Assembly (NCBI GenBank): GCA_030433115.1
Contig: JAUILH010000006.1
Span: 1,691 to 65,690, forward strand
Length of the DNA stretch: 64,000 bases
Direction: 5' to 3'
Source of the DNA: Bacteroidia bacterium
GTDB lineage: Bacteria; Bacteroidota; Bacteroidia; Flavobacteriales_D; JAUILH01
Shown: positions 44,063 through 63,985 of the stretch, one piece after another
Layout of the letters: each line of letters starts with the position of its first letter
How positions within the stretch are numbered: the first letter of the stretch is position 1
Notes under the pieces: generated by a model
What the model was told of the DNA's origin: nothing
Database searches by the model: none
What the model saw: only the letters and a program-made list of their open reading frames with translations
Position numbers and translations under genes: made by a program

Positions 44063-45022
44063 ATGAATTACAGAATTTACATAACAATTATAGCTGCACT
44101 GGCAAGTCATTTAAGCTGGGGTCAAATCTGTCCAACAAACACCAGTTGTGCTACCGCTCAGAATTTGTGTGAGGCGGACACCGCAGCATGGCAATGTATG
44201 CCCTGTAGCATGGGATCGAATCCCGAAATATGGTTTGAGTTCACTGTGAACGCCACAGGAAGCATTCCAATGAATTTCTATGACGCCACAGGGTGGCCGT
44301 ATGCAAACATTTTCACCGGTTATGAGTTATATGGACCACTACCAAGCCTTCATGATTGTAGCAATTTACCGTCTCCAATAGCATCTTCTACAGATACAGC
44401 GGGCTTCTATTTTGCAAATATCACCAGTGGTCACTACTTACTTAAAATCAACGTGCTTGGTTGTGCGGATTCTCTTCAGAAAGTAAAAGTATTTCTGGAA
44501 GGCGCTGACCCATTGGTGTGTGCCAACGACTCCGCTTCTTGTGAAAACTGCATTGGCTCCTTTGCGCCAATACCAGGTAAAAAATATGTATTAAGCGCCT
44601 GGACCAAAGAAGACAATCCTTCGTTGAGTAAAACAAGCTACACAAACCCCGAAATATATCTTGATTTTCCCTCTGCAAGCACCACACTTGGACCGTTTAA
44701 TCCCGCAGGAGAAATCATTGATGGTTGGCAAAGAATAGAACAAGAGTTCACGGTTCCGGCTACCGCCAATGAGATTAAACTAAGGCTACAAAGTGCCTCC
44801 GGAGACGTGTATTTCGATGACATTAGAATATTTCCTTTTGATGCAAGTATGAAGTCGTATGTCTACGACCCAGTTAATATGCGCTTAGCAGCAGAGTTGG
44901 ACGAGAGACATTATGCCACCTACTACGAATATGATGAAGAGGGCAAACTAATACGTGTGAAGAAAGAAACCGAAAAAGGCGTGATGACCATCCAGGAAAC
45001 CCGAAATAACGCTTCAAAATAA
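44063..45022 (+). CDS. Secreted Cys-rich protein with a jelly-roll (CBM-like) domain and a YD-repeat-like tail
   Basis: Signal peptide, then a Cys-rich N-terminus (ICPTNTSCATAQNLCE..CMPC). The sequence continues ..VYFDDIRIFPFD.. and SYVYDPVNMRLAAELDERHYATYYEYDEEGKLIRVKKE. Confidence 0.5.
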   Translation: MNYRIYITIIAALASHLSWGQICPTNTSCATAQNLCEADTAAWQCMPCSMGSNPEIWFEFTVNATGSIPMNFYDATGWPYANIFTGYELYGPLPSLHDCSNLPSPIASSTDTAGFYFANITSGHYLLKINVLGCADSLQKVKVFLEGADPLVCANDSASCENCIGSFAPIPGKKYVLSAWTKEDNPSLSKTSYTNPEIYLDFPSASTTLGPFNPAGEIIDGWQRIEQEFTVPATANEIKLRLQSASGDVYFDDIRIFPFDASMKSYVYDPVNMRLAAELDERHYATYYEYDEEGKLIRVKKETEKGVMTIQETRNNASK

Positions 45023-45029
45023 TAGAGAT

Positions 45030-45752
45030 ATGAAACGACTAACTACAAGTATCCTTCTTTTAATAAGTCTGACATCTGGTGCGCAAACAGGCTCTAACAT
45101 TGATGTTGATGAAATGTCTCAAGTGCTCAAACAAGTTGCAGACAAATATACTGCAATGAGCGATTACAGCTTTAATGTCACATATACTTCATATAAAGGT
45201 CACTCAGGGAATGTCATTGCCGATAAATCCAGTGGAGTTTTCAAAAAGTCAGGACAAAAAATGTACGCCAATATCATGGGTATGGAAACGGTTCAGGATG
45301 ATAAAATTCGAATTCTGACATTGGAGCAGGAAAAGCTGATGTTTGTGTATGAACCAAAGCCCATGGAAGAAACTATGGATATTGATGCTTATTCCAAAGC
45401 ACTGAATGATGCCTCAAAAATAACTAAAAGGCATTCCGGGTCTCAACAAATCTTTGTCATCTATTTCAAATCATATTCAACACTAGAAAAGATGGTGCTC
45501 TACCTGAATGATGACCTGTTTATCACCAAAGTAAAGTTGTTTTATGCAGAAGCTCAATCGTGGGAAGTTGGAAGCGGAGTGACCAAAAGCGCGAAACCAA
45601 GACTTGAAATCAATTATAGCAACTTTTCTTTTAGCCCTGTTAAGCCAAACAGTTTTAACACGGCTCAATATGTGACGACAAGTGGAACCTCCTATAAAAC
45701 CACCAGTCAATACGCCAGATACGAATTAAATAACATGATCCTTTCTAAATAA
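45030..45752 (+). CDS. Secreted hypothetical protein (LolA/LolB-like fold suspected)
   Basis: Signal peptide MKRLTTSILLLISLTSGAQ. The size and strand pattern resemble lipoprotein-sorting-like proteins. This is a weak call. Confidence 0.35.
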   Translation: MKRLTTSILLLISLTSGAQTGSNIDVDEMSQVLKQVADKYTAMSDYSFNVTYTSYKGHSGNVIADKSSGVFKKSGQKMYANIMGMETVQDDKIRILTLEQEKLMFVYEPKPMEETMDIDAYSKALNDASKITKRHSGSQQIFVIYFKSYSTLEKMVLYLNDDLFITKVKLFYAEAQSWEVGSGVTKSAKPRLEINYSNFSFSPVKPNSFNTAQYVTTSGTSYKTTSQYARYELNNMILSK

Positions 45753-48700: not shown

Positions 48701-51700
48701 ATACGACCCATTCGTGACCAGTGGAAATTTTGGTGCCTATGCCAGTGCGTTAGAGACCAAATACGATACCTATGTATCCGGCAGTCCATCTTACAGTATG
48801 ATAGAAATGGCTGCGGCTACAGTGCGCTGTGGAACAGTTAGCGGATTGGGAGGAAGCTGCACAGATTTTGGAAAAGACATTGCTGGTTATACGGCAGCAG
48901 AGAATGACAGTATTCGTGACCTTGAATGGCAAACTTTCAAAGCCATGTATCAGGGCGAAAAACGAACTCAGCAAAATGGATATGCACATGAAGACGCCAT
49001 TGCCAACAAATGCTATAACGGGTGTATTGGACAGGTGCCATTCCATATCCACGCCAATGGCTTTTACGGATCTCCAGGAAACGGTTGGCTCAACAATGCT
49101 TTTTACGACAATGACCAACCGTGTTCTGTAAGCAACTATCATTTGTACAAAACCAAAGCCAAGCGCTTTCCTGATACAGAAGATATTCCCGGATATAATT
49201 CTAATGCAAGCAATCAAACCAACTACAATACAGCATCAAGTGAAAGTTTTATGCAAACCGGAGTGTGTCCAACCGCAACAAACCTTGAACAGTTTTTAAC
49301 TGAACTATCTGCACACGATACTTTAACAGACAATCATCAACTTATTGGGGCATATGGTACTTGGGCTGGCTTATATTATTCGATTTATGGATTTGATAAT
49401 CCAGCACCTCAAGTGTACTGGGACACCCTCTCTTCTGATTTAACTCTGGATGTGACTCTATTAGACTCTACAACTTCAGATACGCTTTGTAAGATGGGTC
49501 TGGATGCTACCGGAGTACTTACAGATTGGGATGATGTGCAGGCCTTCACAAACATTAATCCAACCGGATTCGATGGCGATTACTATAATTTCACAGTCAT
49601 TGTTGAACATGATAGCAGTGGTACCACCTTGTATGATACAATTCCGGGCTACACGTGTATGAACATAGAGTGTTGTTTGTTTGAAACACCTTGCTCTGCA
49701 AACCAGTTGGCTGCTGACTTACAGAATTTGATGTCTGCTCTGGCTTCAGATGATGAACTGCAGTCAATAAGTTTTGCTTATGGTCTGGATAATGACTATG
49801 CTAACACGGAAAGCCTTGTGATCAATAATCATGTGTCCGGTTCGCACAGTACTTTAAAGTGGGATTACAACTCATCCGATGACATATATGAAATAAGAAG
49901 TGCAAATGATACGCTTTGCCTGGAGATAACAGGTAAAACCCCTTCGTCATTTAGTAACTACACGGACATTTGGTATTTCGACAATTTTTTGAGTGCTACA
50001 GAACACTACTTTACTGTAGAAGGTTACGATTCAACGGGAACTTTGTTGGTGACACTAGAGGGACAAGCATTCGTAAAAACGGCTACTGATACTATACCTG
50101 TTTCTTTGGGAGATTGTGATCTAAAATCAATCCAATGTGCTACAGTGGCTCATGGAATACGAGAAGATTTAGAGAACTTACTTCATGAAAGTTTATTGGC
50201 GAATCCATTTTCGAGTAACATCAACTTTTATAACAGTATTTATATCACTGATAATTTTAGTGATGCCTTTGGCTTCAATGCGGCTGAGTCTTCCAGCAGC
50301 GAAGACACGATTACCGTGGATTCTGTTTTCTATGATAGTCTGCATATTGCTTTGACTCCTTCCGGAGAAGGAAGAACAGACACGCTGTGTAATTTATATC
50401 TATCAATCTCTTCTGATACTGCACAACACCTTCAATTTGAAGATTTAACGAACCTGGGCCCCCTGGTGGCAACAGGCACTCCCGGTTTTGATGGCAACTT
50501 CTATGACTTCTACATGTTGGCGGACTTTAGCTACATGATTGGAGAGACCATTTATACCGCTTCAGATACGGTTTGGGGAAGCTCAGCTTGTTTATCGCTT
50601 CAAAACTGTGACCTGTGCGATTCGGTGGTAAGTCCACCGGATACGATCATCTATCCTAATGAAGACGCTGTGCTCATGACCCAAAGTCAGAGCAAGGACT
50701 GCGAATCAGATCACGGAACTTACTTACAGGCAATTACAACATACAACACCTACGTAACGAATAACAGCCTAAACTGGCCTGAGGCGGATACCACTTACAC
50801 CCAGTCCGAAATGACTTTCCTCAATTATTGTGGATGTGTAGATCGCTTTGATAAATATGTGAGCAGCCTAACGGATGGTTTTGGAGAAGACCCCGATAGT
50901 GCCGACATAGTGCCCTATTTGGATCTTGCAGCACATTGTCCAAAACCGCCTTGTCAACCTTACATTCCAGTAACAGACACCATAGAGAATATTTATGTGG
51001 ATTATGTCAATCCTTGTGTGGAGGACCTCATGAACACCGCCATGTTAAATGCTGAGATAGCCTACCAAAATTACCTGGATAGCATGGCTTCTATTGCAGC
51101 AGATCAATACCAAACCCACTGTATAGGGGCTGTCGAAAACCTGAATGCCAGCTTTTCAGACAAGGAATACCACTTCACGCTGTATTATTACGATCAGGCA
51201 GGAAACCTGGTAAAAACGGTTCCACCAGAAGGCGTTCAGCTCCTTGACGACTTAACGGCCGATGGAGACAGCTTGTCTCAATTAATTGCTAACGACAGGT
51301 TTTATGGCACGCATTCCATATACACTTCCCATAGGTTAGCCACTACTTACACCTATAATTCATTAAACCAATTGGTTAAACAAAGCCTGCCAGATCACAA
51401 TAAAATGGATGTTTTTGACATGTCTTTGAGCAGTGGTTTGGACAATGGTATGACCATCGAAAGTGTACAGTTCGTGAACTCAGCAAGAGGTTACTTGGCG
51501 GGCTGGAAAATTGAGGGCAATGATACGCTCGGCTTAGCTTACAAATCTGATGATGGGGGTAAAACCTGGCAAAGATTGCGTAACACAGTAGCAGAAGATT
51601 TAAATAAAGTGAACAGCTTCAATGATGTGGCATATGCCGTTGGAAACAGAGGTGTTTTGCTGAAGTCTTCTGATGCCGGTATGTCGTGGAACATGATTGA

Positions 51701-54700
51701 CTTGTATGGACTCAATGTGACTGAAGATTTGAATGATGTGGCTTTGTCAAGCACCACAAGCGGATTGATTGTTGGAGATGGTGGCAGGTTAATCAGTCTT
51801 CAAAGTAGCGGTCTGTCTTCTATTTCTCCCACTGTTACCAACGCGAGTTATCCAATTAACTCGGATGATGATGTGCTATCAGTTAAGCGTATTGGAACAA
51901 CCTATTACATCTCGGTATGGCATACACCGGCAAGCGGAGACGGCTTTGGACTCATGTACAAAAGTGCAGACACTACCGGCAACCACTGGATTCCATTAAT
52001 TGATGTGCAAGGACCTGGTTACAACGACATAGATTTTGTAGACGCTAATACCGCATACGCTGTTGGAGACCAGGGGAGCGTTTACCAAACCATAGATGCG
52101 GGCGACAATTGGTATGTAGTTGACAACTATTTAACCGATAATTTGTCAAAAGTCTTTTTTATGGATGCCAACAACGGAATTGTATTGGCAGACAGTTTGG
52201 CTTCTTACGGCAAGCTAATGGCAACCAACGATGGTGGCAACACCTGGTACAGATTAAACACTTATGGCCAGTATTACAGCAATTTCCATGTGTATTATGA
52301 GGATGGTTCTTATGGTGCCAAATTGGCTTTGGTTGGTCCTGATGCTGCAGTGGCCAGACTCATCATGCAGAACAATACAGGCTTTGGTGTGATTCCTCTC
52401 GATGATATTTCTGCCTCAGTTGATTTTACAGGTGTTTGGGCAAAAGAATCGAACAACAAACTATTCTTAATGGCGGCAGGAAATGCAGCGAACATTTATT
52501 TCACCAGAGATGCAGAAGCTTCTGTTACGCCATGGTCATCAGACAACGTAGGGGTGTCAAATATTGTTGAGATCAAAGCTGATTCAGTAAGTGCCGTATT
52601 TACCGGAACAGCTATGGATAACAACGGAAAATTGTATGGTTTTACGCTGGATGCAGATCCCGGCACTACCAGTAATACATTTACCTGGGGCGCCTTTACA
52701 ACACCAACAGCGGGTAACCAGGAGTTTTCTGCCCTCGAGAACGATCCCGATAATAGCAGATTGCTTGCCTACAATCAACAAGACAATAAACTGTATACCA
52801 TCTCTCCTTCTGGTGCCAGTTTGGTAACAAGTGCTTCAGACAATGGTGTGGTAACGGCTGGTCTGGCGTCATTGGATCAATATACCGCCATTGCTGTTGA
52901 TGAAAACGGAAGCGGGCTGGTAAGTGGTCCAACAGGTTATTTAACACACGCTTCTGAGTCGGCTGGAAGCTATACCTGGTCAGAGCAAAAAACAAACATT
53001 CGTCCACAAGCCATTAACGACATGGCACTGGTTGAAAATGATCAGTTATGGGCCGTTGGAGAACGCGCAACTCTGTTAAGGCATGATACCACATCAAATG
53101 CTCTTTATCTCCAGCTTGCGGAAACTAAAGACAACTGGAATGCCATAGCCTACTCCGGTGTGGACTCAAGTATCGTAGTAGGAGATAGTGGGGCCATTCT
53201 AAGAGTTTACCGTTCGGGAGGCAATTTTGCTTTCACAAACATTGCTTCAAACACAACTTCAGATTTATATGATGTGGTAGTGGATGCCAGTACTTACACG
53301 GCTTATGTTGCCGGAGAAGGGAACCAAACCAGGATGACCTCTAATAACCTCAATACTGCTACGCCGAGCTTCAGTGTGATGTTTGGAACAGCCTTAAACA
53401 ATACCGGGCTCTCTTTATTTGTTGGAGCGAATAGCCGCATCAATTTTGGAGCCGGGCAGTCTGTAGTGCCCACATGGCAGGTATTCCCACACGCCTTAAC
53501 CGATCTGCATTTTTCAAATGCCCAAAACGGCTATGTAATTGGCGATCATTATACCGTGAGATATACAAACGATGGCGGACAAACCTGGCAATCTGTAATT
53601 CCTGACAATGGCTTTGGGTCCGGAGTACCAGAGCTCAATACCGTGTGGAATACATCTGCGGCAACCGCTTATGTAGGTGGAAACGACAATTATATCGCTA
53701 CAACAAACGGTACAGAATCTACCGAATCAGGCATTACCTTGCCGGGTGGTTATGGTGCCGGAATTGACTTCAATGACATCACCTTTGTTGACAGTGATAC
53801 TGCCTTCATGGTAGGGGGAGATACTGATGGACAAGCCTTAATATCTGTGGATGGAGGTGCTAATTGGACCAGCGTTTCGGGAGCTATTGGAGAAGTCCTC
53901 CACACGGTACATGGTTTCACCAGAAACAACACATTTATTGCAGGTGGAGAGAATGGTCAGGTAGCCTATTTCGATGGAACCAGCATGCTTGAATCGGGCT
54001 ACCAACCAGTTGCCAGCTTCACAGGAACCATCAACGACATTTATTTCCATGATGACATTACAGGTTATTTGGTGGGAGATAATGGAGAAATTCACCGATC
54101 AATAAACGGAAGCCTCAACACCAATGGACTATTAAGTAGTATTAATTGGCTTGAAAAAGGGACAAATGATGGCGGCTTGCTCAACCAAACCACGGAAGGT
54201 GACAAGAATATTAATGCCATTGATTTTGCCGAGCGATTTAACGGGTTTATTGGAGGAAGCTATGCCAGCGGTTCACCAGACGTGTATGCCAGATTACTTA
54301 ACGATGAAAGCAATGAATATTCTACCTATTTCTGGTATGATAAACTGGGCAGAATAGTGGTGTCTCAAAACAGCAGACAGTTTAACGCAGACACCGTTCG
54401 CTACAGTTATACCAGATACGATGAGCTTGGAAGAGTTGTGGAGGCAGGTGAAAAATTAGAAAACACCACAGACACTGTCTTCACAAGTATTTTTGGGGAA
54501 GTCATCAACGGACATTACAACCCCAATGTCATCAACGATACCTTGTTGTCTGCCTGGATTGAAGCCCCATCCGGCAGAAGACAGGAAGTGACCCATAGTT
54601 ACTATGATGTTGCCATTAATGCTCTATCGGACACCTTGCCATCAGGGTTTGCTCAGAACAACTTGAGAAAGAGAATTGCCACTGTGATGTACGAAAAAGT

Positions 54701-57700
54701 GCTGGACAACGACACCACTACCTACGACCACGCGACACACTACAGTTACGACATTCATGGCAACGTGGAGACCTTGATTCAAGACAACAGAAACTCCGGC
54801 ATTGCGGCTCAACGTTTTAAACGCATGGATTATGAGTACGATTTGATTTCGGGTAATGTCCATAAAGTGGCGTATCAGGCCGACTCTGCGGATGCCTGGT
54901 ACCACAAGTACGACTATGATGCTGATAACCGCATTTTACATGCTTATACCTCAATAGACGACATCAACTACGACATGGACGCCAAGTACATTTACTACGA
55001 CCATGGTCCGCTTGCCAGAGTTGAACTGGGTGAAAATAATGTGCAGGGAATGGATTATGCCTACACACTTCAAGGTTGGTTAAAAGCAGTGAATAGCGAT
55101 AAATTAAATCCGCTGAACGACATAGGGCATGATGGTCATTTGCTAGACACCACCAATGTGAATGGAAGCTTTGCCGTAGACGCCATGGGTTACTCCTTGA
55201 GCTATTACCAGGGAGACTATGCCAGCATAGATACGGCAGTTTGGCAGGACACGGCTACCAGATTCTTATCGGCAACCAACCATGCCGCATACATGCACGA
55301 CAGAAAAGACCTTTACAATGGCAATATTGGGAGCATGATTACCACCATTGCTTATGAAACCAACATCAATACACCATTGGAGTTTGGTATGGATGTGAGG
55401 CCACAGGCTACTGCATACAGGTACGATCAATTGAACCGATTATCATCGGCAAAAGCTTACAACAACTTCTGTTCAACCAATAACAAATGGATAGAAACAC
55501 ACGCCTACAAAGGGTTATACGAAAACCGGTTTACCTATGAAGCCAATGGAAACATCCTCACACAACTGAGACGTGACTACAGAACTAAGACCATCGATAG
55601 CCTGAACTACGAATACGCCAGAAATGCCGAAGGGCAACTCGTTCAAAACAGATTATACCATGTGGATGATGCTGTGTTGCCAGGCGACTTTTCAGACGAC
55701 ATAGATGACATGGGCACTTTTGAGGACAATGTGAACCTGATTAACAATGGTAGCAACAACTACCGTTACGACGACATAGGCCAGCTCATACAAGACAGTC
55801 AGGAGGGCATAGACACCATTATTTGGCGCGTAGATGGAAAAATTAAAGCCATTTACAGAACAGCATCTGCTGGGAAGTCAGACAAGAAAAGTTTGACCTT
55901 TGATTATGATGCCATGGGCAACCGCATTGCCAAACATGTGTACTCAACCGACACGGCAGACGGCGGACCAGATAGTTGGATGAAATCCGTATACTACAGC
56001 AGAGATGCGCAAGGCAATGTAATGAGTGTTTACGAATACAAAGAAGATCCGCTCACCGCAGCAGTCAACTACACACTCACGGAAAGAGATATCTACGGCT
56101 CATCTAGAGTAGGGCTTCACAAAGAAAGCATTGAAATGATTGGAGCCACAACAGATGCAACAAACGCCTACCACAGAATAGGTGACAAAAACTATGAACT
56201 GAGCAACCACCTGGGCAATGTCCTGGCTACGGTGAGTGATAAGAAGATCAACACCTATCAATTGAACATTTTGGAACGCTTCAATACCACAGCAGACTCT
56301 ACTGAATTTGACCAATGGGAGCTTCTTGGAAGCGCCACTAAGAATATTGACAATGGGTATTTGGAAGTGATTCCTGGCGCTAAGGGAGATGGTGTTAAAC
56401 GTTTCCTAAAGACCAGAAAAGGGAAAGCCTACGAGTTTTCTATGGATCATGGTTTCCCTAATTCTACTGACTTGACATTGATTCAGATTTATGATATGGT
56501 ATCAGGAGATACGATTCACGCAATCAGACGAATTAATAGTCCCAGTTCTAAGGCATATTGTGCAGACTTTATCGCGCTTAGCGACAGTACAGAGATCTAC
56601 ATAACTGCCAACACCAGTGCGTTTACTTTCAATTTCGACAACTTCTATTTGAGACGACGAAACCTCAATGATTTAAGATACCATATAGACAGGTTTGAAG
56701 ACAGCACAGATATTTGCAAATGGTCGTATGGCGGAACGGTGGCACAAACTCTGGATACAGGATGGCTTAAAGTTGAAGTAGACAATCAATATGAGGCCAC
56801 AGGCAGATGGTTTACAACCGTTCCCGGACATACTTACAACATTGACTTTGATTTGGATTTGGGAACCTGCACAGAAGTGGAGGTAAGGCCTGAAGATTTC
56901 ACCAACTTCCCCCATACTAATTTAACAGGCTATTCATATACCACTGGTGGGCATAAAAGCTTCTGGTTTGTTGCAACAGGTCGTACTCATAGACTCCGCT
57001 TTCATAAACTTGGCAACCATGGCAGCACCACGCATTATTTCTTAGACAATGTTGAAATTAGAGATAATAATTATTACCCATACTGCGAAGGCGTCTTTGC
57101 CACAGAGTTTACAGAGTCAGACCCGGATGATTTGGCAGACACCGTGAACTGGACGGCCGTTAACGGAGCGAGCTTTGAGTTGGAGGATGATAAGTTGCAG
57201 GTGAGTACAGATGCTATTGATGAAGGAATAGAGCGCGTTTTTGTCGTGAACAGGGGGCGCCCACATAAATTGAAGCTATTCTTTGCATCAGACTTTGCCT
57301 CTGCATCTATGTTAGTGCGTATTTATGATGCCAATACTGGAACATACCTGGCTCGCGGATCTTATACCAATGGTGTTCCGGAGAGGCCTATTTCTTTTTA
57401 TCCTGCTGCAGATTCAATCAGAATAGAAATTGTAGCCACGAACGCAAGCTCTTTTGATTGGACAGTAGACAACTTTGAACTTGTAGAACGAGACTATATG
57501 CCTATAGTGGCCGACTTTGAACCCAATCCAAAATCAGCTGAAGAGCTTACCGACTGGCATGTGAATTTGGGCTATTTAACAGCCACCCCAGATGAGGGAA
57601 GAATTAAAGTTGAGACTGAATACACCAATCAAACCTTCGCCAGAATTTTTTGGTGTAAACCATACCACACCTACCGTGTAAAGTTTAATATGGATAAGGG

Positions 57701-60479
57701 CAATACAGCCGGTGTAAGAGCAAGAATTACCACCTACACACCAAGCTTGTCGCCAAGCACACTGCACAACGTAACTTATACCGTAGATGGCGATCATGAA
57801 TTCACGTTTTCACCACCGAGTACTATTTCCAGAATGGTTCAACTGCTATTCTATAAGAGCGGAGGAAATGGCACCATGCAACACTACTATTTGGATGACA
57901 TCATCATAGAAGACATCACCGACACCCTGTTTAGTCCAGACCACAACGACATCATTGCAAGCAGTTACCCAAGCATCCACAGTGCTGTAGATTACAGCCC
58001 CTTTGGTGTGCAGTTGGATGGCAGAACCTATAATTTAGTCGCGGATGCCGTAGAGGCCATAGAACCAGACTATCGTTGGGACTTGATGGATGCAGATTTA
58101 TCAGAAGACAATGGTTCTGGTTATGATATGACTGCCAATGGTGGAGCTTTGGATACTTTGGATAGATGTGGTAATTCTAAAAGCGCCTACTACTTGGATG
58201 GTGTGGACGATTATTTGGAAATAACAGATCAGGTGGCATTTACCCCAGGAGCAGATGACTTTAGTGTGAGTATTTGGGTGAAGAAGTTGAGTGCTACGGT
58301 GAGTTATGCTGGCAATGTAGCTGTGAGTAAGTGGAACACCGGAGGCACACCGGGCACCAATGAATGGAGCTTGGGTATGAGTAGTGGCGCAAGCGGAGCA
58401 GATCCTGGCGGATTCTCGATCGAATCTGGAAGTACAAGTTACAGAGCCGAAGGTTTATCCCCAGTGAATCTGAATGAATGGTACCATCTGGTTGGCGTTA
58501 GAGATGGCGATTATATCAAGTACTTTATAAATGGTGAACTACAAAGTCAGACTTATGTTGGTACGGCCAGCGTTAATGACATTTCTGGTATGGACATGTA
58601 CTTTGGAAAACGCCAAAACAATGGCAATGGGCACATGGTATTGGACGATTTTGCTTATTTTAGAAGAGCCTTAAGCCAAAGTGAAGTGAAAAGTATGTTC
58701 GACCATAGCAGTTGTAATTTTGAGGGGGGACCAGCGGGTTGCAGCTATGTATATACTGGGTATGATGAGGTAATTACAGAGACAGTTACTAACCATTTAG
58801 ATGTATCAGGGGTAGATGATCATGTGAGAGCGGGAGGAGGTAATAGAAACATTACCAATGAAGTGACCCTTGAAGCCTGGATAAGAGCGGACTATGTAGT
58901 TTCTGCTGCCGGGACTTTCTTTAATAAGTATGGTGACGTTGGTGGCGGCAACTACAGAGGTTACCACCTCTTCTACAATGGTGGCCGGGTAAGATTTGCT
59001 GGTGTCAATGGCTCAGATGGTTACAAATCTACCGCATACTCAGACACCATAGCCGATGGTTTATGGCACCATGTGGTTGGTGTAGTAGATAGCAACGACA
59101 CCTGGAGTTTGTATTTAGATGGTGTATTAGTAGACTACACAGATTACACCCTGACAACAGGAGACCTTACAAATCCAGGGGTACTTCAGATAGGCGATGG
59201 GACCTTCTCGAATGATGATTTTAATGGAGAGATGAAACACGCCTCTATATGGAATAGAGCCAGAACAGCCCAGGAAGTGTTAAATGACTATACATCTGTT
59301 CATCCAACAGGAACGGAGGCTAATTTAATGGGTTATTTTCCATTGGATGAAGGCACGGGCACAACAGCCTATGATTTGTCTTCGACTGGAGCAGACGGGA
59401 CATTCTCAGGAAGTCCAACCTGGACAACCGATACTTTGGTTGATACAACGTATGTTCCTAATGACTCGGTGAAGGTGAGCGGTGCTGTGACTTATAGATA
59501 CGGATTCCAGGGACAGGAAAAAGACAACGAACTCAAAGGTGAGGGATTATCTATCAACTACAAGTATAGAATGCATGATCCTAGGCTGGGGAGGTTCTTT
59601 GCGGTGGATCCTTTGTTTAGAGAATATCCAAACCTGTCTAGTTATCATTTTGTTAGCAATGACCCTATAAGTGGTGTTGAAGTTGATGGCAGATGGTGGA
59701 GAAAACATAGGAAGACAGCCACAGGTAGAAATGCAGCAACTATAAATAGTTTGTACGGACCATTTAAAATGGTTATTAATGATCCAGCTGAAATAGAGGG
59801 ACTAGATAATCTGTCAATGATACCTTATGCCGGTTTATTGAGTACTGCCAATAAGTATAAGGCAATTTATGACGACCCTTCCTTAGAGATGTCTAAATTT
59901 GATTATCTCAGTGTGGTTGGAGGAGCTTATTTTAAAGGTACAAGGAAGATAATAAAGTCTCTTACAAAACTTAGTAAGGCCTCAAGAACTGCTCTTGGTA
60001 TTAGTGAAAAGACTTTTGAAGTTATGGGATATGTGTCGAGTGTGGATGAGCAATATCGAGAAATTGCCTATGAAACTTTTACTGCGAGGACTCTTGCCGA
60101 TTACGAAGAAGTGATTGATGGGAAAAGCTATAAAATAGGCTATGTCAATGAGGACAAAAGTGGTTATGTTGATGGGTTTACAATTAATAAAGACTACTAT
60201 GACGCAAAGTTTTCTGAGCAACACACAAAATTCTCAAAAGAAATAAATGGAATTACTGATGAAGAATTTGAAAAGAAACTTGATGAAGAATATCCTTATA
60301 GGCTTGTTTACATGGATAGGCAAGACTATATAAACAGAAAATCAAAAGAAGCTGTTGAAAAACACTTTTATTCTCGTCTGGAGCTAACCAAATGCTCTCT
60401 TAAAGAAAATGTGGATAAAGCAATAATTAAATATCTTAAGTCAAAGACAAACTCAAATAATTCAACTGAAAATGAATAG
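45762..60479 (+). CDS. 4905-aa Sec-signal RHS/YD-repeat polymorphic toxin (DUF6443-like N-region, BNR propeller insert, CBM-like and LamG inserts, variable C-terminal toxin)
   Basis: Signal peptide MRLKYFITALILTGSSAVALS. DUF6443-like ISYFDGSLRNRQSV..YDHQGRPAVNILPVP. Many YD repeats (YYYDQAGNLVKTV, YTRYDELGRVVEAGE, YDYDADNRILHAY, FDYDAMGNRIAKHVY ...). Core motifs NHLGNV, YSPFGV and YRYGFQGQEKDNE..YKYRMHDPRLGRFFAVDP..NDPISGVEVDG. Confidence 0.9.
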   Translation: MRLKYFITALILTGSSAVALSNDISVHQRIAASNGNAVEIGSAEAEKTVEVLPKTGAFKDINQKAFLSFGVDHNYEGYLEEDMNVRVVVHVTPYDKNDVAQTAFDQSLEIEYKPFSFISYQDKDQYIFEEAYKFEFRIDSVFINGVSDTLLPANMYVDGDITIDRTYEFASSVNTVITPDDSVIYLNCDTLADELEIRWNTLLGAEEYQLEWVFVNDYTATENAYSATGKTYNFRNNSTRISTAETFYRIPLVFDHGYVLYRVRAIGRDTADLDKRIFGTWSYDQDGLITDAAVIKYHNTVPHEKEKNWQLTTTFAEEGKKKEVISYFDGSLRNRQSVTRINSDNNTIVGETIYDHQGRPAVNILPVPVQTPTCDSSGNEEISALQFYPNFNLNDSAQAYSRHDFDLDDSASWSVSAGSLNDSTGASNYYSPSNPNKTAHQAYVPQANGYPFTQVEYTPDNTGRIKRQSGVGENFKLGSGKETQYFYGKPMQIKLNRLFGSEVGYASHYKKNLVIDPNGQISVSYLDQEGRVVATSLAGEVPDNLIALTSEENASVDLTADLFEKDPNGNSLTNAIGPDGKSIVYNQELLVSTASDYEFIYSIDSDTLYDSCLVDTICFHCVYDLTFMITDACGDTIPSDTIVTDTTIGYFTTDSLGTIQFNTECQTPSGVSYSDTLLVSLTPGNYTISKILTLREDAIDYYVEAFLDSANNECVKTLYDFQQDFLALVDTSSCYVDCDSCESQLGTRDDFVSQGLGTALEYDIMLEECQAPCQDIDPCDVARQMMLVDMMPAGQYGTYYDAQGNIDVSSYNLSIYSSNNMLSATNALWSNPYLEKNGNTYDYFIDELGDSAKVILQSDGSGGYVPSVTSALLVHTNGNGDFYTYPDNLANVTDFIDLFQESWAQSLLYYHPEYCYYKTCLEYHEEDSDENTSNTFDNLLLNTETFDAAINAGIIKSNYAALSNPDDRLEDLFTVSTSHAYDPFVTSGNFGAYASALETKYDTYVSGSPSYSMIEMAAATVRCGTVSGLGGSCTDFGKDIAGYTAAENDSIRDLEWQTFKAMYQGEKRTQQNGYAHEDAIANKCYNGCIGQVPFHIHANGFYGSPGNGWLNNAFYDNDQPCSVSNYHLYKTKAKRFPDTEDIPGYNSNASNQTNYNTASSESFMQTGVCPTATNLEQFLTELSAHDTLTDNHQLIGAYGTWAGLYYSIYGFDNPAPQVYWDTLSSDLTLDVTLLDSTTSDTLCKMGLDATGVLTDWDDVQAFTNINPTGFDGDYYNFTVIVEHDSSGTTLYDTIPGYTCMNIECCLFETPCSANQLAADLQNLMSALASDDELQSISFAYGLDNDYANTESLVINNHVSGSHSTLKWDYNSSDDIYEIRSANDTLCLEITGKTPSSFSNYTDIWYFDNFLSATEHYFTVEGYDSTGTLLVTLEGQAFVKTATDTIPVSLGDCDLKSIQCATVAHGIREDLENLLHESLLANPFSSNINFYNSIYITDNFSDAFGFNAAESSSSEDTITVDSVFYDSLHIALTPSGEGRTDTLCNLYLSISSDTAQHLQFEDLTNLGPLVATGTPGFDGNFYDFYMLADFSYMIGETIYTASDTVWGSSACLSLQNCDLCDSVVSPPDTIIYPNEDAVLMTQSQSKDCESDHGTYLQAITTYNTYVTNNSLNWPEADTTYTQSEMTFLNYCGCVDRFDKYVSSLTDGFGEDPDSADIVPYLDLAAHCPKPPCQPYIPVTDTIENIYVDYVNPCVEDLMNTAMLNAEIAYQNYLDSMASIAADQYQTHCIGAVENLNASFSDKEYHFTLYYYDQAGNLVKTVPPEGVQLLDDLTADGDSLSQLIANDRFYGTHSIYTSHRLATTYTYNSLNQLVKQSLPDHNKMDVFDMSLSSGLDNGMTIESVQFVNSARGYLAGWKIEGNDTLGLAYKSDDGGKTWQRLRNTVAEDLNKVNSFNDVAYAVGNRGVLLKSSDAGMSWNMIDLYGLNVTEDLNDVALSSTTSGLIVGDGGRLISLQSSGLSSISPTVTNASYPINSDDDVLSVKRIGTTYYISVWHTPASGDGFGLMYKSADTTGNHWIPLIDVQGPGYNDIDFVDANTAYAVGDQGSVYQTIDAGDNWYVVDNYLTDNLSKVFFMDANNGIVLADSLASYGKLMATNDGGNTWYRLNTYGQYYSNFHVYYEDGSYGAKLALVGPDAAVARLIMQNNTGFGVIPLDDISASVDFTGVWAKESNNKLFLMAAGNAANIYFTRDAEASVTPWSSDNVGVSNIVEIKADSVSAVFTGTAMDNNGKLYGFTLDADPGTTSNTFTWGAFTTPTAGNQEFSALENDPDNSRLLAYNQQDNKLYTISPSGASLVTSASDNGVVTAGLASLDQYTAIAVDENGSGLVSGPTGYLTHASESAGSYTWSEQKTNIRPQAINDMALVENDQLWAVGERATLLRHDTTSNALYLQLAETKDNWNAIAYSGVDSSIVVGDSGAILRVYRSGGNFAFTNIASNTTSDLYDVVVDASTYTAYVAGEGNQTRMTSNNLNTATPSFSVMFGTALNNTGLSLFVGANSRINFGAGQSVVPTWQVFPHALTDLHFSNAQNGYVIGDHYTVRYTNDGGQTWQSVIPDNGFGSGVPELNTVWNTSAATAYVGGNDNYIATTNGTESTESGITLPGGYGAGIDFNDITFVDSDTAFMVGGDTDGQALISVDGGANWTSVSGAIGEVLHTVHGFTRNNTFIAGGENGQVAYFDGTSMLESGYQPVASFTGTINDIYFHDDITGYLVGDNGEIHRSINGSLNTNGLLSSINWLEKGTNDGGLLNQTTEGDKNINAIDFAERFNGFIGGSYASGSPDVYARLLNDESNEYSTYFWYDKLGRIVVSQNSRQFNADTVRYSYTRYDELGRVVEAGEKLENTTDTVFTSIFGEVINGHYNPNVINDTLLSAWIEAPSGRRQEVTHSYYDVAINALSDTLPSGFAQNNLRKRIATVMYEKVLDNDTTTYDHATHYSYDIHGNVETLIQDNRNSGIAAQRFKRMDYEYDLISGNVHKVAYQADSADAWYHKYDYDADNRILHAYTSIDDINYDMDAKYIYYDHGPLARVELGENNVQGMDYAYTLQGWLKAVNSDKLNPLNDIGHDGHLLDTTNVNGSFAVDAMGYSLSYYQGDYASIDTAVWQDTATRFLSATNHAAYMHDRKDLYNGNIGSMITTIAYETNINTPLEFGMDVRPQATAYRYDQLNRLSSAKAYNNFCSTNNKWIETHAYKGLYENRFTYEANGNILTQLRRDYRTKTIDSLNYEYARNAEGQLVQNRLYHVDDAVLPGDFSDDIDDMGTFEDNVNLINNGSNNYRYDDIGQLIQDSQEGIDTIIWRVDGKIKAIYRTASAGKSDKKSLTFDYDAMGNRIAKHVYSTDTADGGPDSWMKSVYYSRDAQGNVMSVYEYKEDPLTAAVNYTLTERDIYGSSRVGLHKESIEMIGATTDATNAYHRIGDKNYELSNHLGNVLATVSDKKINTYQLNILERFNTTADSTEFDQWELLGSATKNIDNGYLEVIPGAKGDGVKRFLKTRKGKAYEFSMDHGFPNSTDLTLIQIYDMVSGDTIHAIRRINSPSSKAYCADFIALSDSTEIYITANTSAFTFNFDNFYLRRRNLNDLRYHIDRFEDSTDICKWSYGGTVAQTLDTGWLKVEVDNQYEATGRWFTTVPGHTYNIDFDLDLGTCTEVEVRPEDFTNFPHTNLTGYSYTTGGHKSFWFVATGRTHRLRFHKLGNHGSTTHYFLDNVEIRDNNYYPYCEGVFATEFTESDPDDLADTVNWTAVNGASFELEDDKLQVSTDAIDEGIERVFVVNRGRPHKLKLFFASDFASASMLVRIYDANTGTYLARGSYTNGVPERPISFYPAADSIRIEIVATNASSFDWTVDNFELVERDYMPIVADFEPNPKSAEELTDWHVNLGYLTATPDEGRIKVETEYTNQTFARIFWCKPYHTYRVKFNMDKGNTAGVRARITTYTPSLSPSTLHNVTYTVDGDHEFTFSPPSTISRMVQLLFYKSGGNGTMQHYYLDDIIIEDITDTLFSPDHNDIIASSYPSIHSAVDYSPFGVQLDGRTYNLVADAVEAIEPDYRWDLMDADLSEDNGSGYDMTANGGALDTLDRCGNSKSAYYLDGVDDYLEITDQVAFTPGADDFSVSIWVKKLSATVSYAGNVAVSKWNTGGTPGTNEWSLGMSSGASGADPGGFSIESGSTSYRAEGLSPVNLNEWYHLVGVRDGDYIKYFINGELQSQTYVGTASVNDISGMDMYFGKRQNNGNGHMVLDDFAYFRRALSQSEVKSMFDHSSCNFEGGPAGCSYVYTGYDEVITETVTNHLDVSGVDDHVRAGGGNRNITNEVTLEAWIRADYVVSAAGTFFNKYGDVGGGNYRGYHLFYNGGRVRFAGVNGSDGYKSTAYSDTIADGLWHHVVGVVDSNDTWSLYLDGVLVDYTDYTLTTGDLTNPGVLQIGDGTFSNDDFNGEMKHASIWNRARTAQEVLNDYTSVHPTGTEANLMGYFPLDEGTGTTAYDLSSTGADGTFSGSPTWTTDTLVDTTYVPNDSVKVSGAVTYRYGFQGQEKDNELKGEGLSINYKYRMHDPRLGRFFAVDPLFREYPNLSSYHFVSNDPISGVEVDGRWWRKHRKTATGRNAATINSLYGPFKMVINDPAEIEGLDNLSMIPYAGLLSTANKYKAIYDDPSLEMSKFDYLSVVGGAYFKGTRKIIKSLTKLSKASRTALGISEKTFEVMGYVSSVDEQYREIAYETFTARTLADYEEVIDGKSYKIGYVNEDKSGYVDGFTINKDYYDAKFSEQHTKFSKEINGITDEEFEKKLDEEYPYRLVYMDRQDYINRKSKEAVEKHFYSRLELTKCSLKENVDKAIIKYLKSKTNSNNSTENE
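49280..50620 (+). other. Three tandem, highly diverged ~150-aa modules inside the N-terminal region of the giant protein
   Basis: Each module has a leading helix (NLEQFLTEL / LAADLQNLMSAL / IREDLENLLHESL). Each then has a DTLC(K/L/N) strand and a G(F)DG(D/N)(Y/F)Y(N/D)F or HYFTVEGYD strand. Confidence 0.5.
51540..54330 (+). other. BNR/Asp-box (Ycf48/sialidase-like) beta-propeller region inserted between YD-repeat blocks
   Basis: Six Asp-box motifs: SDDGGKTW, SSDAGMSW, TIDAGDNW, TNDGGNTW, TNDGGQTW and SVDGGANW. YD repeats lie immediately before (51170-51400) and after (from 54331, FWYDKLGRIV). Confidence 0.7.
56270..57920 (+). other. Four tandem diverged jelly-roll (CBM/galactose-binding-like) modules inserted in the RHS core
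   Basis: Each of the four ~135-145-aa units ends in a DNF(Y/E)L / LDN(V)EI / LDDIII strand and opens with an F(E/N)..(D/T)...W motif. They sit between NHLGNV (56205) and YSPFG (57993). Confidence 0.6.
58060..59300 (+). other. Two LamG/concanavalin-A-like (Laminin_G_3-type) domains between the PFG motif and the terminal RHS core motif
   Basis: The patterns FSVSIWVK..W.HLVGVRDG..KYFINGEL..RALSQSEV and LEAWIRAD..WHHVVGVVDSNDTWSLYLDG..IWNRARTAQEV are typical of LamG_3. Confidence 0.7.
58665..59630 (+). repeat. Dispersed repeat, copy A (3' LamG-RHS-core region of the giant gene) homologous to the orphan cassette
   Basis: About 95% nt identity to 61811-62006 over the first ~190 nt. The centre is divergent. 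Identity is about 85% again over 59310-59630 versus 62470-62770. Confidence 0.85.
59691..60476 (+). other. Variable C-terminal toxin domain of the giant RHS protein (family not recognised)
   Basis: It follows the conserved ..DPRLGRFFAVDP..NDPISGVEVDG boundary, where RHS toxins are normally autoproteolysed. About 262 aa, K/E-rich, with no recognisable catalytic motif. Confidence 0.6.
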
Positions 60480-60843
60480 AATAGTCAAGATAGTAATACT
60501 AATTACTTTTTGTTCTTGTTCAAATGATCAATCTGAAAATGGAGGACAATCGCAAGAAAGGAATCGTAAGGAGATTGCCGTTAAACTATATCAGAACAGG
60601 ATAGTTGGAAGTCATGGTATGAATCAAGATAGAATTGTTTTTGAAAAGAATAATGTAATGATAGACTGTGTGAAAATTCACAGCAAAGATTCATTGACTC
60701 TTCTCAGCAAGTTCATTATAGACGATTCCCTAAGCATTTCAGCAGAATCTGTGATTAGGGATTTTGGTGTGGAATGGATTGTTCAAGATATGCGATACTT
60801 TGATACTGTGAGTTTATCAAAGACTATCATAGTAAGGGACTAG
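60472..60843 (+). CDS. Putative cognate immunity protein (lipoprotein)
   Basis: The ATG overlaps the toxin stop by 8 nt. Lipoprotein-type signal MNRIVKIVILITFCSCSNDQ in a 123-aa protein. Confidence 0.6.
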   Translation: MNRIVKIVILITFCSCSNDQSENGGQSQERNRKEIAVKLYQNRIVGSHGMNQDRIVFEKNNVMIDCVKIHSKDSLTLLSKFIIDDSLSISAESVIRDFGVEWIVQDMRYFDTVSLSKTIIVRD

Positions 60844-60937: not shown

Positions 60938-61285
60938 GTGAGCAGTAAATACAAAATAAACAATCCAGACGGCATCTACTTTATAAGCTTTGCAACAGTT
61001 GGATGGATAGATGTATTTACCAGAAAAGCTTACAAGGATATACTGGTAGATAGCTTAGAGTATTGTCAAAAAGAAAAGGGTTTAGAGCTGTATAGTTGGT
61101 GTATAATGAGCAATCATGTTCACTTAATAGCCAAAAGTAAAACAGGTGATTTAAGCGGCACATTAAGAGATCTGAAACGACATACCAGTAAAACCATTAT
61201 AGAGGCCATTAAAAACCATCCACAAGAGTCTAGGCGCGAATGGAAGTCACATTCCAATTGTCACCTAAACCACATAACCGATTGA
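60938..61285 (+). mobile_element. IS200/RAYT-like Y1 (HUH) transposase, 3'-truncated remnant
   Basis: SSKYKINNPDGIYFISFATVGWIDVFTR..YSWCIMSNHVHLIAK (HUH motif)..ESRREW. Homology then stops abruptly where the tandem repeat begins, and the C-terminal catalytic-Tyr region is missing. Confidence 0.7.
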
Positions 61286-61572
61286 TAATGAGCAACAATT
61301 ATTTTGAAAACCCTCAAATTTCAGGGGTGTTTGGGCCTCATTGGTGTAAAGAAAGTCTCTTAGAAGCGCTTAAAACGAGTATTAAAAACCTCATGTTCCA
61401 ATTGTCAGTCACATTCCAATTGTCACCTAAACCACATAACCGATTGATAATGAGCAACAATTATTTTGAAAACCCTCAAATTTCGGGGGTGTTTGGGTCT
61501 CATTTGTGTAAAGAAAGTCTCTTAGAAGCGTTTAAAACGAGTATTAAAAACCTCCTGTTCCAATTGTCACCT
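61246..61572. repeat. Tandem direct repeat, 162-bp unit x2 plus a partial third start
   Basis: Copy 1 is 61246-61407 and copy 2 is 61408-61569, with 5 mismatches in 162 nt. The 12-mer TTCCAATTGTCA occurs four times, marking the unit ends. Confidence 0.9.
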
Positions 61573-61741: not shown

Positions 61742-63004
61742 GTGATAGCCCGACCCCAAATGAGACAAACTAGCGGAACATATGATTTTTATGGGGTGGC
61801 AGCCAAAGAAAGAGCCCTAAGCCAAAGTGAAGTGAAAAGTATGTTTGAACATAGTAGTTGTAATTTTGAGGGGGGACCAGCAGGTTGCAGCTATGTATAT
61901 ACCGGGTATGATGAGGTAATTACAGAGACAGTTACTAACCATTTAGATGTATCAGGGGTAGATGACCACGTGAGAGCTGGTACAGGTAATAGAAATGTAA
62001 GTGATGAAGTAACAGTAGAGGCCTGGGTGAGGACGGAAGACTTAAATACAACAACAGGTACCTTTGTGGCCAAATACCAATATGTTGGCGGCCCCGCCAT
62101 AGCCAAGGGTTACTACTTGTATATGAAGAACGGAAAAGTGGGTCTTGGAGGAAGAAACACCAGTGATGGCGTTGGTAAAGTTACGGGTACTTCCGATACG
62201 ATTTCAGATGGTAATTGGCACCATGTAGTGGGTGTTATAGATACCAATGATACCTGGCGCTTATATGTAGATGGTTCATTGGTGTCACAGGTAGACTACA
62301 ACGGGGTCAATTTGGATTTGACCAACAGCGATCATTTGAGAATAGGTGATGGTCATTTTAGCAACGATGATTTTGAAGGAGAGATCAAGGAGGTGTCTAT
62401 CTGGAATCGGGCCAAAAGTGCATTGGAGGTTTTGAATGATTATGCTTCAGGTAGCTTTACAGGAACAGAAGCTAATTTGATGGGTTACTTCCCGTTGGAT
62501 GAGGGGACAGGTAGTACAGCCTATGATTTGTCTGTAGCGGGTGCAGATGGTACGTTCTATAACAGTCCAACCTGGACAACGGATACATTGGTTGACACGA
62601 CTTATGTTCCTAATGACTCGGTGAAGGTGAGTGGGGCTGTGAGTTATAGATATGGATTCCAGGGGCAAGAGCGTGATAACGAGATAAAGGGAGACGGAAA
62701 CAGTTATAATTATAAGTATAGGATGCATGATCCAAGGTTGGGGAGGTTTTTTGCGGTGGATCCGTTGTATAAGGACTATCCGGAATTAACACCTTATCAG
62801 TTTGCTGCCAATCAAGTAATACATGCTGTTGAACTTGAGGGACTGGAAAACTCAAATTATATCTCTCCGTTTGGAGAGCCTACTATGTGGGATGGGTATC
62901 AGGAACCAATAAACCCCACAACACTTATTAATCCTAGTACAATTGATTTTTGGAGTGATACATGGGTGGGGAGGTTTATGGTGTCAGCGGTAAAACATCA
63001 GTAA
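61742..63004 (+). pseudogene. Orphan RHS C-terminal cassette: tail of one LamG, a full LamG domain, RHS core motif and the start of an alternative toxin tip; no credible start
   Basis: Homology to the giant gene begins inside a LamG domain. The cassette contains YRYGFQGQERDNE..YKYRMHDPRLGRFFAVDPLYKDYPELTPYQFAANQVIHAVELEG. It has only a GTG start, no signal peptide and no N-terminal RHS body. Confidence 0.8.
61811..62770 (+). repeat. Dispersed repeat, copy B (orphan cassette)
   Basis: See copy A. At the protein level, RALSQSEVKSMF(D/E)HSSCNFEGGPAGCSYVYTGYDEVITETVTNHLDVSGVDDHVRAG is nearly identical in both. Confidence 0.85.
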
Positions 63005-63621
63005 GGACTGTAAACAAATTAGCTACACCTAGTGGTCAAGCAGAATTGACTATTGAAACTGGTCAAGGAGTTATAACCACAGTTGAAGTGATGTATACCT
63101 ACTATGACATGATGTTTAATGAGGGTAGGAACACTACATATGATGATATCAAACAAGGCAGTGTTTGGCTTAATTCATTTGATTTGACCAATCCTGAAAC
63201 AGCAGGAAGTTTTGCAGCTAACTTTTTTATGTTTGGAGGAGGAAATTGGCTCAGGGGATTGACTATTAAGCCAAAACTTCCACCTAAAGGTGGTGTCCTG
63301 AAATATGAGCCACCTGTGACAAATGAAATTTATAAAAGACCTAACAATGCAACAACACCTACCCAAAGAGCTTCAGTACAGAATCAGCCTTGTGTAGATT
63401 GTGGTGCAACAGGGCAAAAGAATGTTGCGGATCACAAAACTCCACTGGTAAAGGAACATTATGAAACAGGAACAATAGATTTAGAACGCATGAAATCTGT
63501 TGATGCTGTTCAGCCCCAGTGTCCATCATGTTCAGCGAAACAAGGTGCTTCAATGAGTAGTTATTCAAAAGCAATGAAAAGTGTTATTGAAAAAAGGACA
63601 AATTCAGGAGGAGAACAGTAA
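62962..63621 (+). CDS. Continuation of the orphan toxin tip in the -1 frame; C-terminal HNH/EndoVII-like nuclease suspected
   Basis: This frame opens right after a TGA at 62956 and overlaps the previous ORF by 43 nt. The C-terminus CVDCGATGQKNVADHKTPLVKEHY...QCPSCSAKQG has a Cys4 + DH pattern like small HNH/EndoVII toxin domains. Confidence 0.5.
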   Translation: MGGEVYGVSGKTSVRTVNKLATPSGQAELTIETGQGVITTVEVMYTYYDMMFNEGRNTTYDDIKQGSVWLNSFDLTNPETAGSFAANFFMFGGGNWLRGLTIKPKLPPKGGVLKYEPPVTNEIYKRPNNATTPTQRASVQNQPCVDCGATGQKNVADHKTPLVKEHYETGTIDLERMKSVDAVQPQCPSCSAKQGASMSSYSKAMKSVIEKRTNSGGEQ

Positions 63622-63640: not shown

Positions 63641-63985
63641 ATGCCAAATCAATCAGTTGAACAGTTAGAAATTTGTCAAAAGTATGGGTCAAGATTTGAT
63701 CTACCCCCAAGTCATTATAAGTTAGGGGTGTCAAGAAATGTTCAATTAGACATTTACCCAATTCATGGACTCAGGCATCCTGTAGATGGAGACACTTCAG
63801 GATGGTATATTTGGTCTGGTGAATATTCCGAAGAGGCAGACTTCTTTTTGCCATTGCACATACATCATATTAATGAATGGAATCCATTGATCGAGAAATA
63901 TCTGGCACTTGAACCTGGCTGGAGGTTCCTAATAGCCCATGGACATGAGGATGTCTGGTTTGATGAAAAGCTTCTGAATATATAG
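63641..63985 (+). CDS. Putative immunity protein for the orphan toxin
   Basis: It lies 19 nt downstream of the toxin tip. 114 aa, cytoplasmic, with a GWYIWSGEYSEEADFF..LHIHHI motif reminiscent of polymorphic-toxin immunity families. The exact family is uncertain. Confidence 0.5.
   Translation: MPNQSVEQLEICQKYGSRFDLPPSHYKLGVSRNVQLDIYPIHGLRHPVDGDTSGWYIWSGEYSEEADFFLPLHIHHINEWNPLIEKYLALEPGWRFLIAHGHEDVWFDEKLLNI

Follow-up and report, generated by a model that had tools for sequence, protein, structure and literature searches.

In the window analysed here, a 64,000-nucleotide stretch of a Bacteroidia bacterium genome (assembly GCA_030433115.1, contig JAUILH010000006.1, positions 1,691 to 65,690), a giant RHS polymorphic-toxin gene at 45762-60479 (+) encodes a protein of 4905 amino acids (543 kDa) whose RHS core is interrupted by two large inserts. 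The split is confirmed: about 1,070 extra residues lie in two neighbouring loops of the core, the first occupied by four tandem modules with a predicted jelly-roll fold resembling carbohydrate-binding modules (CBMs), and the second by two LamG domains. The gene was recognised from the list of open reading frames (ORFs) and its translation. Its reading frame is continuous over 14.7 kb, contains zero internal stop codons and includes all three core motifs.

Three blocks of the RHS core lie far apart in one reading frame

An earlier note on this DNA had placed three landmarks of the RHS core (NHLGNV, YSPFG and YxYxFQGQE..DPRLGRFF) far apart, with about 580 residues of four jelly-roll modules and about 495 residues of two LamG domains between them. 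The positions are exact and fall within a single ORF: NHLGNV lies at residue 3482 (nucleotide 56205), YSPFG at residue 4078 (57993) and YRYGFQGQE at residue 4578 (59493), followed by DPRLGRFF at nucleotide 59577. To these motifs we fitted block hidden Markov models (HMMs) b1, b2 and b3, built from 25 insert-free relatives in which the core region aligns as one highly conserved block with the consensus ...G.K.YELSNHLGNVL.VISDKKIP-(variable)-ADIVS..DYSPFGV.LDGR-(4-10)-YRYGFQGQE.DDE.KG.GNS.NY.YRMHDPR.GRFFAVDPL...ELEGLE. Each block HMM matches the 4905-residue protein once only, b1 with 49.1 bits, b2 with 23.1 bits and b3 with 109.2 bits, and TIGR03696 matches above its cutoff, which bears out the identification of the motifs as core landmarks.

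Block b1, a DHLGN-type hairpin (IGDKNYELSNHLGNVLATVSDKKI) at 56178-56249 (+; residues 3473-3496), reads YELSNHLGNVL..SDKKI and lies outside TIGR03696. Block b2, at 57981-58025 (+; residues 4074-4088), reads DYSPFGVQLDGR (SAVDYSPFGVQLDGR) and marks where the TIGR03696 profile begins. Block b3, the catalytic half of the core, occupies 59493-59693 (+; residues 4578-4644), reads YRYGFQGQE...HDPRLGRFFAVDP...EVDGR and was detected by both TIGR03696 and its block HMM. The gap between b1 and b2 is 577 residues in the query and 12-23 in some 220 insert-free relatives, and that between b2 and b3 is 489 residues against 4-17 in the same relatives. Measured between motifs, NHLGN and YxPFG are 35-37 residues apart in relatives and 596 in the query, YxPFG and YRYGF are 19-23 and 502 residues apart, and the distance from YRYGF to DPRxGRF is 26 residues in both. 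On either side of the inserts, the sequence is nearly identical to that of relatives with a contiguous core.

Alignment to the NCBIfam profile TIGR03696, which the earlier note had proposed as a check, gave a single match at residues 4575-4643 (41.4 bits, cutoff 32.5) that covers profile positions 12-75 only. The protein thus has no full-length contiguous TIGR03696 domain (about 76 residues); positions 1-11, which contain YSPFG, are found 489 residues upstream. When the YSPFG block was spliced in silico to the C-terminal block, positions 1-75 were regained with an increase of 3.3 bits. Adding the NHLGNV block to the splice gave no gain, and NHLGNV therefore lies just outside TIGR03696, whose profile starts at YxPFG. 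Strictly by TIGR03696, which corresponds to b2 plus b3, the core is split by the LamG insert alone. The jelly-roll array follows the last DHLGN-type hairpin and ends before TIGR03696 begins, yet it is within the block that relatives conserve. The claim that both insertions split the core thus holds for the family-conserved block, and for the LamG insert by either definition, and does not hold for the jelly-roll array if the core is equated with TIGR03696.

Content of the two insertion sites

The insert at site 1 (56250-57980, +; 577 residues, 65.7 kDa) consists of four tandem modules, m1 (56250-56660), m2 (56661-57065), m3 (57066-57491) and m4 (57492-57917), all on the (+) strand, and a 21-residue return linker. 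The modules are about 135 residues long and match one module HMM at 1.6e-27 to 2.1e-35. They are also homologous to each other (m1 to m3, 5e-9; m2 to m4, 1.5e-16; m1 to m2, 1e-6), a pattern that reads as a duplicated two-module unit. An AlphaFold2 (AF2) model of m2, made with a 25-sequence module alignment, is all-beta, with a predicted local distance difference test score (pLDDT) of 93.1 and a predicted template modelling score (pTM) of 0.86. Foldseek matched this model with probability 1.00 to CBM4, CBM6, CBM11, CBM16, CBM22 and the CBM-like protoxin domains of Cry proteins, at template modelling (TM) scores of 0.6-0.76, the highest (0.76) to CBM22 and CBM4. By this model and its matches the site-1 modules have a beta-jelly-roll fold of the galactose-binding-domain-like type. 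Pfam gave no match above threshold in the module region of the query, which does not qualify as a member of a curated CBM family; among 25 members of the module family, sub-threshold similarity was found to DUF642 in six (9e-4) and to CBM_4_9 in four (1.8e-5). A word-indexed search with the module profile returned five short matches only.

The insert at site 2 (58026-59492, +; 489 residues, 52.7 kDa) contains LamG-1 (approximately 58026-58721, +) and LamG-2 with a trailing linker (58722-59492, +). Laminin_G_3 (PF13385) matches in two stretches (1.1e-43, 149.5 bits, cutoff 27.6). LamG-1 and LamG-2 match each other at 3e-3 only, indicating different subtypes. The module content and the approximate lengths given in the earlier note are therefore both borne out, as CBM-type jelly-rolls and Laminin_G_3 domains.

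After LamG-2, at approximately 59328-59430 (residues 4523-4556), the motif LMGYFPLDEGTGTTAYDLSSTGADGTF..W resembles the strand motif that usually precedes Laminin_G_3, as at the start of LamG-1. In a second copy of this region downstream of the gene (the orphan cassette described below) this part is better conserved than the body of LamG-2. It may have arisen by circular permutation, or be what is left of a third LamG domain.

Both sites are occupied in an ortholog, and single sites in other relatives

A metagenome-assembled genome (MAG) of Flavobacteriales (locus L001, CAXRGQ010000004.1) encodes a collinear ortholog of 4621 residues, 53-70% identical over its full length, with inserts at both sites. 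The dual-insert layout is thus conserved in an ortholog. Its four modules pair one to one with m1-m4 at 42-61% identity, and its blocks b1 and b2 are 87% and 73% identical to those of the query. The L001 protein has a single LamG domain, orthologous to LamG-1 (59% identity), and LamG-2 is missing. Its b3 is 54% identical and belongs to another subtype (GARMYD..GRWLSIDP), and its toxin tip, which contains HEVGH, is unrelated to that of the query.

The survey of Bacteroidota RHS proteins suggested in the earlier note revealed recurrent inserts at both points. Two samples were examined. The first comprised 120 proteins found by searching with residues 3300-4659, and is biased upward, as the query itself contained the inserts; 12 of the 120 had an insert at site 1 (143-299 residues) and 22 at site 2 (84-637 residues). 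The second, less biased sample came from an exhaustive profile search with the insert-free core, which matched 80,590 representatives at E <= 1e-3, of which 7,258 also passed E <= 1e-30. In the 142 new top matches examined, three had an insert of about 150 residues at site 1 and one had an insert of 171 residues at site 2. Together, 38 other Bacteroidota RHS proteins (34/120 and 4/142) have an insert at exactly one site, and carry there one to four modules of the types found in the query. The insertion points agree to a few residues: site 1 directly follows SDKKIP, and site 2 separates ...LDGR from YRYGF.... Judged by the module HMM, most inserts at either site belong to the jelly-roll family of the query modules. 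LamG is found mostly at site 2, with P0004 having LamG at site 1 and P0001 having LamG-LamG-module at site 2. From the two samples, the true frequency of inserts in this subfamily lies between about 3% and 28%, and the two core loops are recurring docking sites for such domains in relatives.

Loci L003-L005, from metagenomes, each contain an intact gene that has a single module at site 2. In Flavobacteriia bacterium 40-80 (L002:11200-11204) the RHS gene has a stop codon between the site-2 module and b3; L003 and L005 are near-identical to L002 and intact.

The second site coincides with a toxin-cassette boundary

In RHS proteins the conserved region at the C-terminus winds into the cocoon, where it closes off one end and serves as an aspartyl autoprotease (PMC8765631, PMC9935623). 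Its catalytic residues are an Arg and two acids within a DPxG-spacer-DPxG arrangement, R2103, D2116 and D2140 in BiTLP (PMC13018210). In the query, R4603, D4616 and E4640 stand at the BiTLP triad spacings of 13 and 24 residues. Cleavage at the predicted site after EVDGR would release a tip of 261 residues and 30.2 kDa, which is a typical Tc cargo size.

This variable toxin tip (59694-60476, +; residues 4645-4905) begins exactly where the query diverges both from L001 and from an orphan cassette downstream. It has no family match, and no homolog was detectable in 5.8 billion proteins. Across P0001-P0262, the length of the tail after the core has an interquartile range of 224-255 residues despite unrelated toxins, which suggests a tight constraint on cargo size. 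A lipoprotein-like ORF of 123 residues (60472-60843, +) overlaps the stop codon of the RHS gene by 8 nucleotides; it has no family match, and is by its position a candidate immunity gene.

The orphan cassette (61742-63621, +) was recognised from repeats in protein and DNA, and contains the end of LamG-1, LamG-2, b3 and a different, frameshifted HNH-like tip. The ORF at 61742-63004 repeats residues 4301-4643 of the main gene with 72% identity over 345 residues, and the DNA repeats are 75-88% identical. The orphan tip is frameshifted into 62962-63621, where its HNH-like C-terminus (...ADHKTPLVKEH...CPSCSAKQ) is encoded. The frameshift lies in a G-rich run at approximately 62955-62975, and the joined tail of about 256 residues has the length typical of the family; the frameshift marks either a pseudogene or a sequencing error. 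Immediately 3′ of the orphan toxin is a gene for an Imm33-like immunity protein (63641-63985, +; Pfam PF24719, 2.5e-38). The locus therefore has the features of a polymorphic toxin, namely a variable tip after b3 with an orphan cassette and an Imm33-like gene downstream.

Comparison of the orphan cassette and L001 with the main gene places an exchange junction at the end of LamG-1. The comparison assigns b1, the module array, b2 and LamG-1 to the constant body of the protein, and LamG-2, b3 and the toxin behave as an exchangeable cassette, so that site 2 coincides with the cassette boundary. Polymorphic toxins are usually arranged in this way; the exception here is that the cassette also carries a domain of putative binding type.

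Between the main gene and the orphan cassette, at 60938-61285, lies a truncated fragment of an IS200-like Y1 transposase (Pfam, 1.2e-8). It overlaps, at 61245-61285, a tandem direct repeat of 162 nucleotides with 97% identity (61245-61568).

Proposed architecture and alternative explanations

We consider it likely that the protein is a functional RHS/YD polymorphic toxin that keeps all the strands of the plug and autoprotease, and in which two successive inter-hairpin loops host beta-sandwich domains. Site 1 lies just after ...SDKKI(P) and site 2 between DYSPFGVxLDGR and YRYGFxGxE. Blocks b1, b2 and b3 would still assemble into an inward-spiralling plug, and the core would still cut after EVDGR, freeing the 30-kDa tip within the shell. 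The inserts would serve as lectin-like binding modules that point outward from the end of the cocoon where the plug lies. They would join the propellers and other domains that the shell already carries as insertions, much as a CBM and a lectin carbohydrate-recognition domain (CRD) are displayed on mosquito SGS1. If each block is a YD-type hairpin whose tight turn is formed by HLGN or SPFG, both sites would lie on one beta-sheet edge, two strands apart, and the two arrays would emerge side by side. Such a position, at successive inter-hairpin connections on one sheet edge, would explain why both sites are permissive. Site 2 may in addition accumulate domains because toxin cassettes recombine there.

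The inserts are probably outside the shell, because of their size, the unchanged length of the toxin and the precedent of SGS1. Together they amount to 118 kDa of folded beta-sandwich, or about 143,000 cubic angstroms. The cargo of a Tc cocoon is about 30 kDa, the largest natural cargo being 35.1 kDa and one of 49.4 kDa having been judged probably not to fit, and it has to remain unstructured in the cocoon (PMC6868009). The chamber of SGS1, at about 30 x 110 angstroms, accommodates about 230 residues, and the CBM and lectin domains of SGS1, which are encoded as insertions in YD repeats, sit on its exterior (PMC9935623). Toxin tails have a median length of 250 residues in proteins with inserts and 242 in those without (p = 0.13), and tail length does not correlate with insert size (rho = -0.14).

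Several points weigh against this architecture. The argument from tail length is indirect, and since the core spirals into the interior, a loop facing inward is possible from the sequence (PMC8765631, PMC9935623). An AF2 model of residues 3466-4650 (1185 residues, 25-sequence composite alignment) reached a pLDDT of only 50.7 and a pTM of 0.35, with b1, b2 and b3 each below 50, and the packing of the core blocks is not readable from it. We infer the orientation of the inserts, the assembly of the plug and the same-edge topology, and binding of carbohydrate or another ligand by the modules is suggested by their predicted fold only. Autoproteolysis after EVDGR is likewise a prediction, and the third position of the triad (nucleotides 59679-59681, in EVDG) is Glu, not Asp. 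Glu is the consensus at this position (ELEGLE) in the QGQE/RFFAVDP subfamily, and the GKE/GRWLS subfamily keeps DPxG.

A bolder form of the proposal is that the plug-end loops are a display platform, that the lectin-type arrays on them form a target-recognition head, and that, with the site-2 modules forming part of the exchangeable cassette (LamG-2, catalytic half-core and toxin), receptor specificity and payload are inherited and swapped as one. We regard this as speculative and rather unlikely. If it were true, binding of a ligand beside the plug could couple to opening or release, and the protein would be a self-contained delivery device that requires no TcA-like or type VI secretion system (T6SS) partner.

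An alternative to the functional toxin is that plug and protease function has been lost, the inserts being passive by-products of illegitimate recombination or parts of an uncleaved adhesin. Site 2 does coincide with the cassette boundary, the core has Glu as its second catalytic acid, a frameshift breaks the orphan toxin, the L002 gene stops before b3, and teneurins show that an uncleaved core is viable. However, site 1 is no cassette boundary and is nevertheless filled in 15 other proteins; the modules are unbroken and in frame, with 42-61% identity to their orthologs; and b2 remains consensus-like although isolated between two inserts. Furthermore, Glu is the family consensus, the tip has a typical length with immunity-type genes downstream, and L003 to L005 are intact. 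This explanation is therefore unlikely.

That a larger cocoon encloses the roughly 1,070 residues of lectin-like domains, either as cargo or to scaffold it from within, appears very improbable. Some loops of the core must face the lumen if it is an internal spiral as described, and no structural model excludes such a placement. Against this, 118 kDa of folded beta-sandwiches would have to share the cocoon with a 30-kDa toxin, in the face of cargo limits of about 30-35 kDa, the dimensions of the SGS1 chamber and the requirement that Tc cargo stay unstructured. In addition, the shell-forming sequence is no larger than in L001 or in relatives of 3000-3900 residues, and the toxin is no shorter when inserts are present.

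Two further explanations have almost no probability left. That the motifs are ordinary YD repeats, with an intact contiguous core elsewhere in the protein, is refuted by a sole TIGR03696 match that is N-terminally truncated, by the single occurrence of b1, b2 and b3, by the splice that restores the profile and by flanks near-identical to the contiguous cores of relatives. That assembly or gene calling joined unrelated sequences might be thought from the absence of a record of the exact protein in the contig index, but is contradicted by the continuous 14.7-kb ORF, by the many independent relatives with a single insert, and by the collinear 4621-residue ortholog with the same inserts, which, coming from an independent MAG, shows that the layout is not an assembly artefact.

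Organisation of the gene and its surroundings

From N- to C-terminus the RHS gene product comprises a signal peptide, DUF6443, BNR/Ycf48-type propellers, putative YD shell segments, the split core and the toxin tip. The N-terminus is signal-peptide-like. Pfam and NCBIfam scans of the 4905-residue protein placed DUF6443 at residues 311-406 and BNR/Ycf48-type propeller repeats at approximately 1850-2880, besides the two Laminin_G_3 domains and the one TIGR03696 match. YD-like motifs are concentrated at residues 1808-1863 and 2857-3380. Pfam scans found no RHS_repeat in the query, though relatives carry PF05593. The putative C-terminal YD-repeat shell segment (54414-56177, +; residues 2885-3472), which runs into the core, was delimited by these motifs and by 70% identity to L001. 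It has no Pfam match, and a phmmer search of PDB with it returned the Tse5 Rhs structure alone, weakly (E = 0.029).

Two more giant insertions lie between YD segments of the shell. The first, at approximately 47560-51010 (residues ~600-1750), is a Cys-rich stretch of about 1,150 residues with no family match, and the second, at approximately 51310-54410 (residues ~1850-2884), consists of about 1,030 residues of BNR/Ycf48-like propeller repeats. Both are kept in L001, at 53-56% identity.

The window is chromosomal, as it contains MnmG at 21309-23180. Directly 5′ of the RHS gene is a LolA3-family gene (45030-45752, +; NCBIfam NF053579, 5.9e-42, above cutoff), whose product could be devoted to carrying the RHS protein, or its partners, across the periplasm. 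Further upstream on the same strand, 38358-44060 (+) encodes a protein of 1900 residues with no family match, and 44063-45022 (+) one of 319 residues with weak similarity to CBM_4_9 and to spike-fiber proteins. These two genes may be part of the RHS locus.

Significance and comparison with known systems

The RHS core has been viewed as a compact, invariant plug and autoprotease of about 80 residues. In this family it tolerates inserts of 0.1-0.6 kilo-residues at two precise loops, repeatedly. The two loops are thus natural permissive sites that could guide the engineering of Rhs or Tc cocoons for the display of binders, and annotation pipelines will wrongly report split cores of this kind as truncated. 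The inserts also link domain accretion to a cassette-recombination junction, and hint at how secreted Bacteroidota RHS toxins might recognise their targets. The earlier note had called the cocoon architecture unusual. This is so with respect to solved RHS structures, from which it is absent, and less so among Bacteroidota, where the same two points are filled in 38 other proteins. We did not find a description of LamG or CBM insertions in RHS cores in the literature searched, the limited coverage of which makes this weak evidence.

Relative to the canonical RHS core (TIGR03696/IPR022385; TccC3, YenC2, RhsA and Tse5), the query keeps the order of the motifs (DHLGx, YxPFG, F-x-G-x-E-x-D and R..DP..GRF...DP) and the spacing of the Arg and the two acids, and has a variable toxin of about 30 kDa behind the core. 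It differs in being interrupted by 577 and 489 residues, whereas the core is contiguous in all solved structures and in the ~220 relatives, and in having Glu as the second acid and EVDGR in place of the DPxGL cleavage motif. None of the structures of SGS1, SGS4, TcdB2-TccC3, TccC2, YenC2, RHS2 and teneurin-like proteins has an insert at site 2; each gives a contiguous alignment of about 90 residues.

Mosquito SGS1 (PDB 8FJP; PMC9935623) is the best PDB match to the family core profile (1.2e-12). Its YD shell is decorated externally with a propeller, a CBM and a lectin-CRD, which are encoded as insertions in YD repeats, and the overall logic, a giant secreted cocoon with lectin-type receptor domains, is shared. 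However, the inserts of SGS1 lie in the shell wall, far upstream of a core (2641-2733) that is contiguous, and SGS1 is eukaryotic, with a cargo of helices and not a polymorphic toxin. Teneurins, bacterial teneurin-like proteins and the TcB propeller likewise combine large non-YD domains (NHL propeller, FN-plug and TcB propeller) and a conserved core plug with a YD shell, but these domains are placed at the shell's N-terminal end or in its wall, and not inside the core. A published survey of teneurin-like proteins names no Bacteroidota phylum (PMC13018210).

As domains, the inserts resemble known families. The module fold is that of CBM4/6/16/22 (TM 0.6-0.76), although no Pfam threshold is reached, and the LamG domains are clear members of Laminin_G_3 (PF13385, 1e-43). 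What is new is their host context, a loop of the RHS core.

Enterobacterial Rhs loci contain orphan (displaced) C-terminal cassettes, in which a promoterless downstream repeat of the 3′ core is joined to a different toxin and an immunity gene. The downstream fragment described here is alike in repeating the 3′ core and continuing into a different toxin and an immunity gene. It differs in that its homology arm includes a whole LamG domain, and a putative binding module would therefore travel with the toxin cassette. That RHS cocoons host inserted receptor domains was known already; the position of such domains within the core, coupled to the cassette junction, is new.

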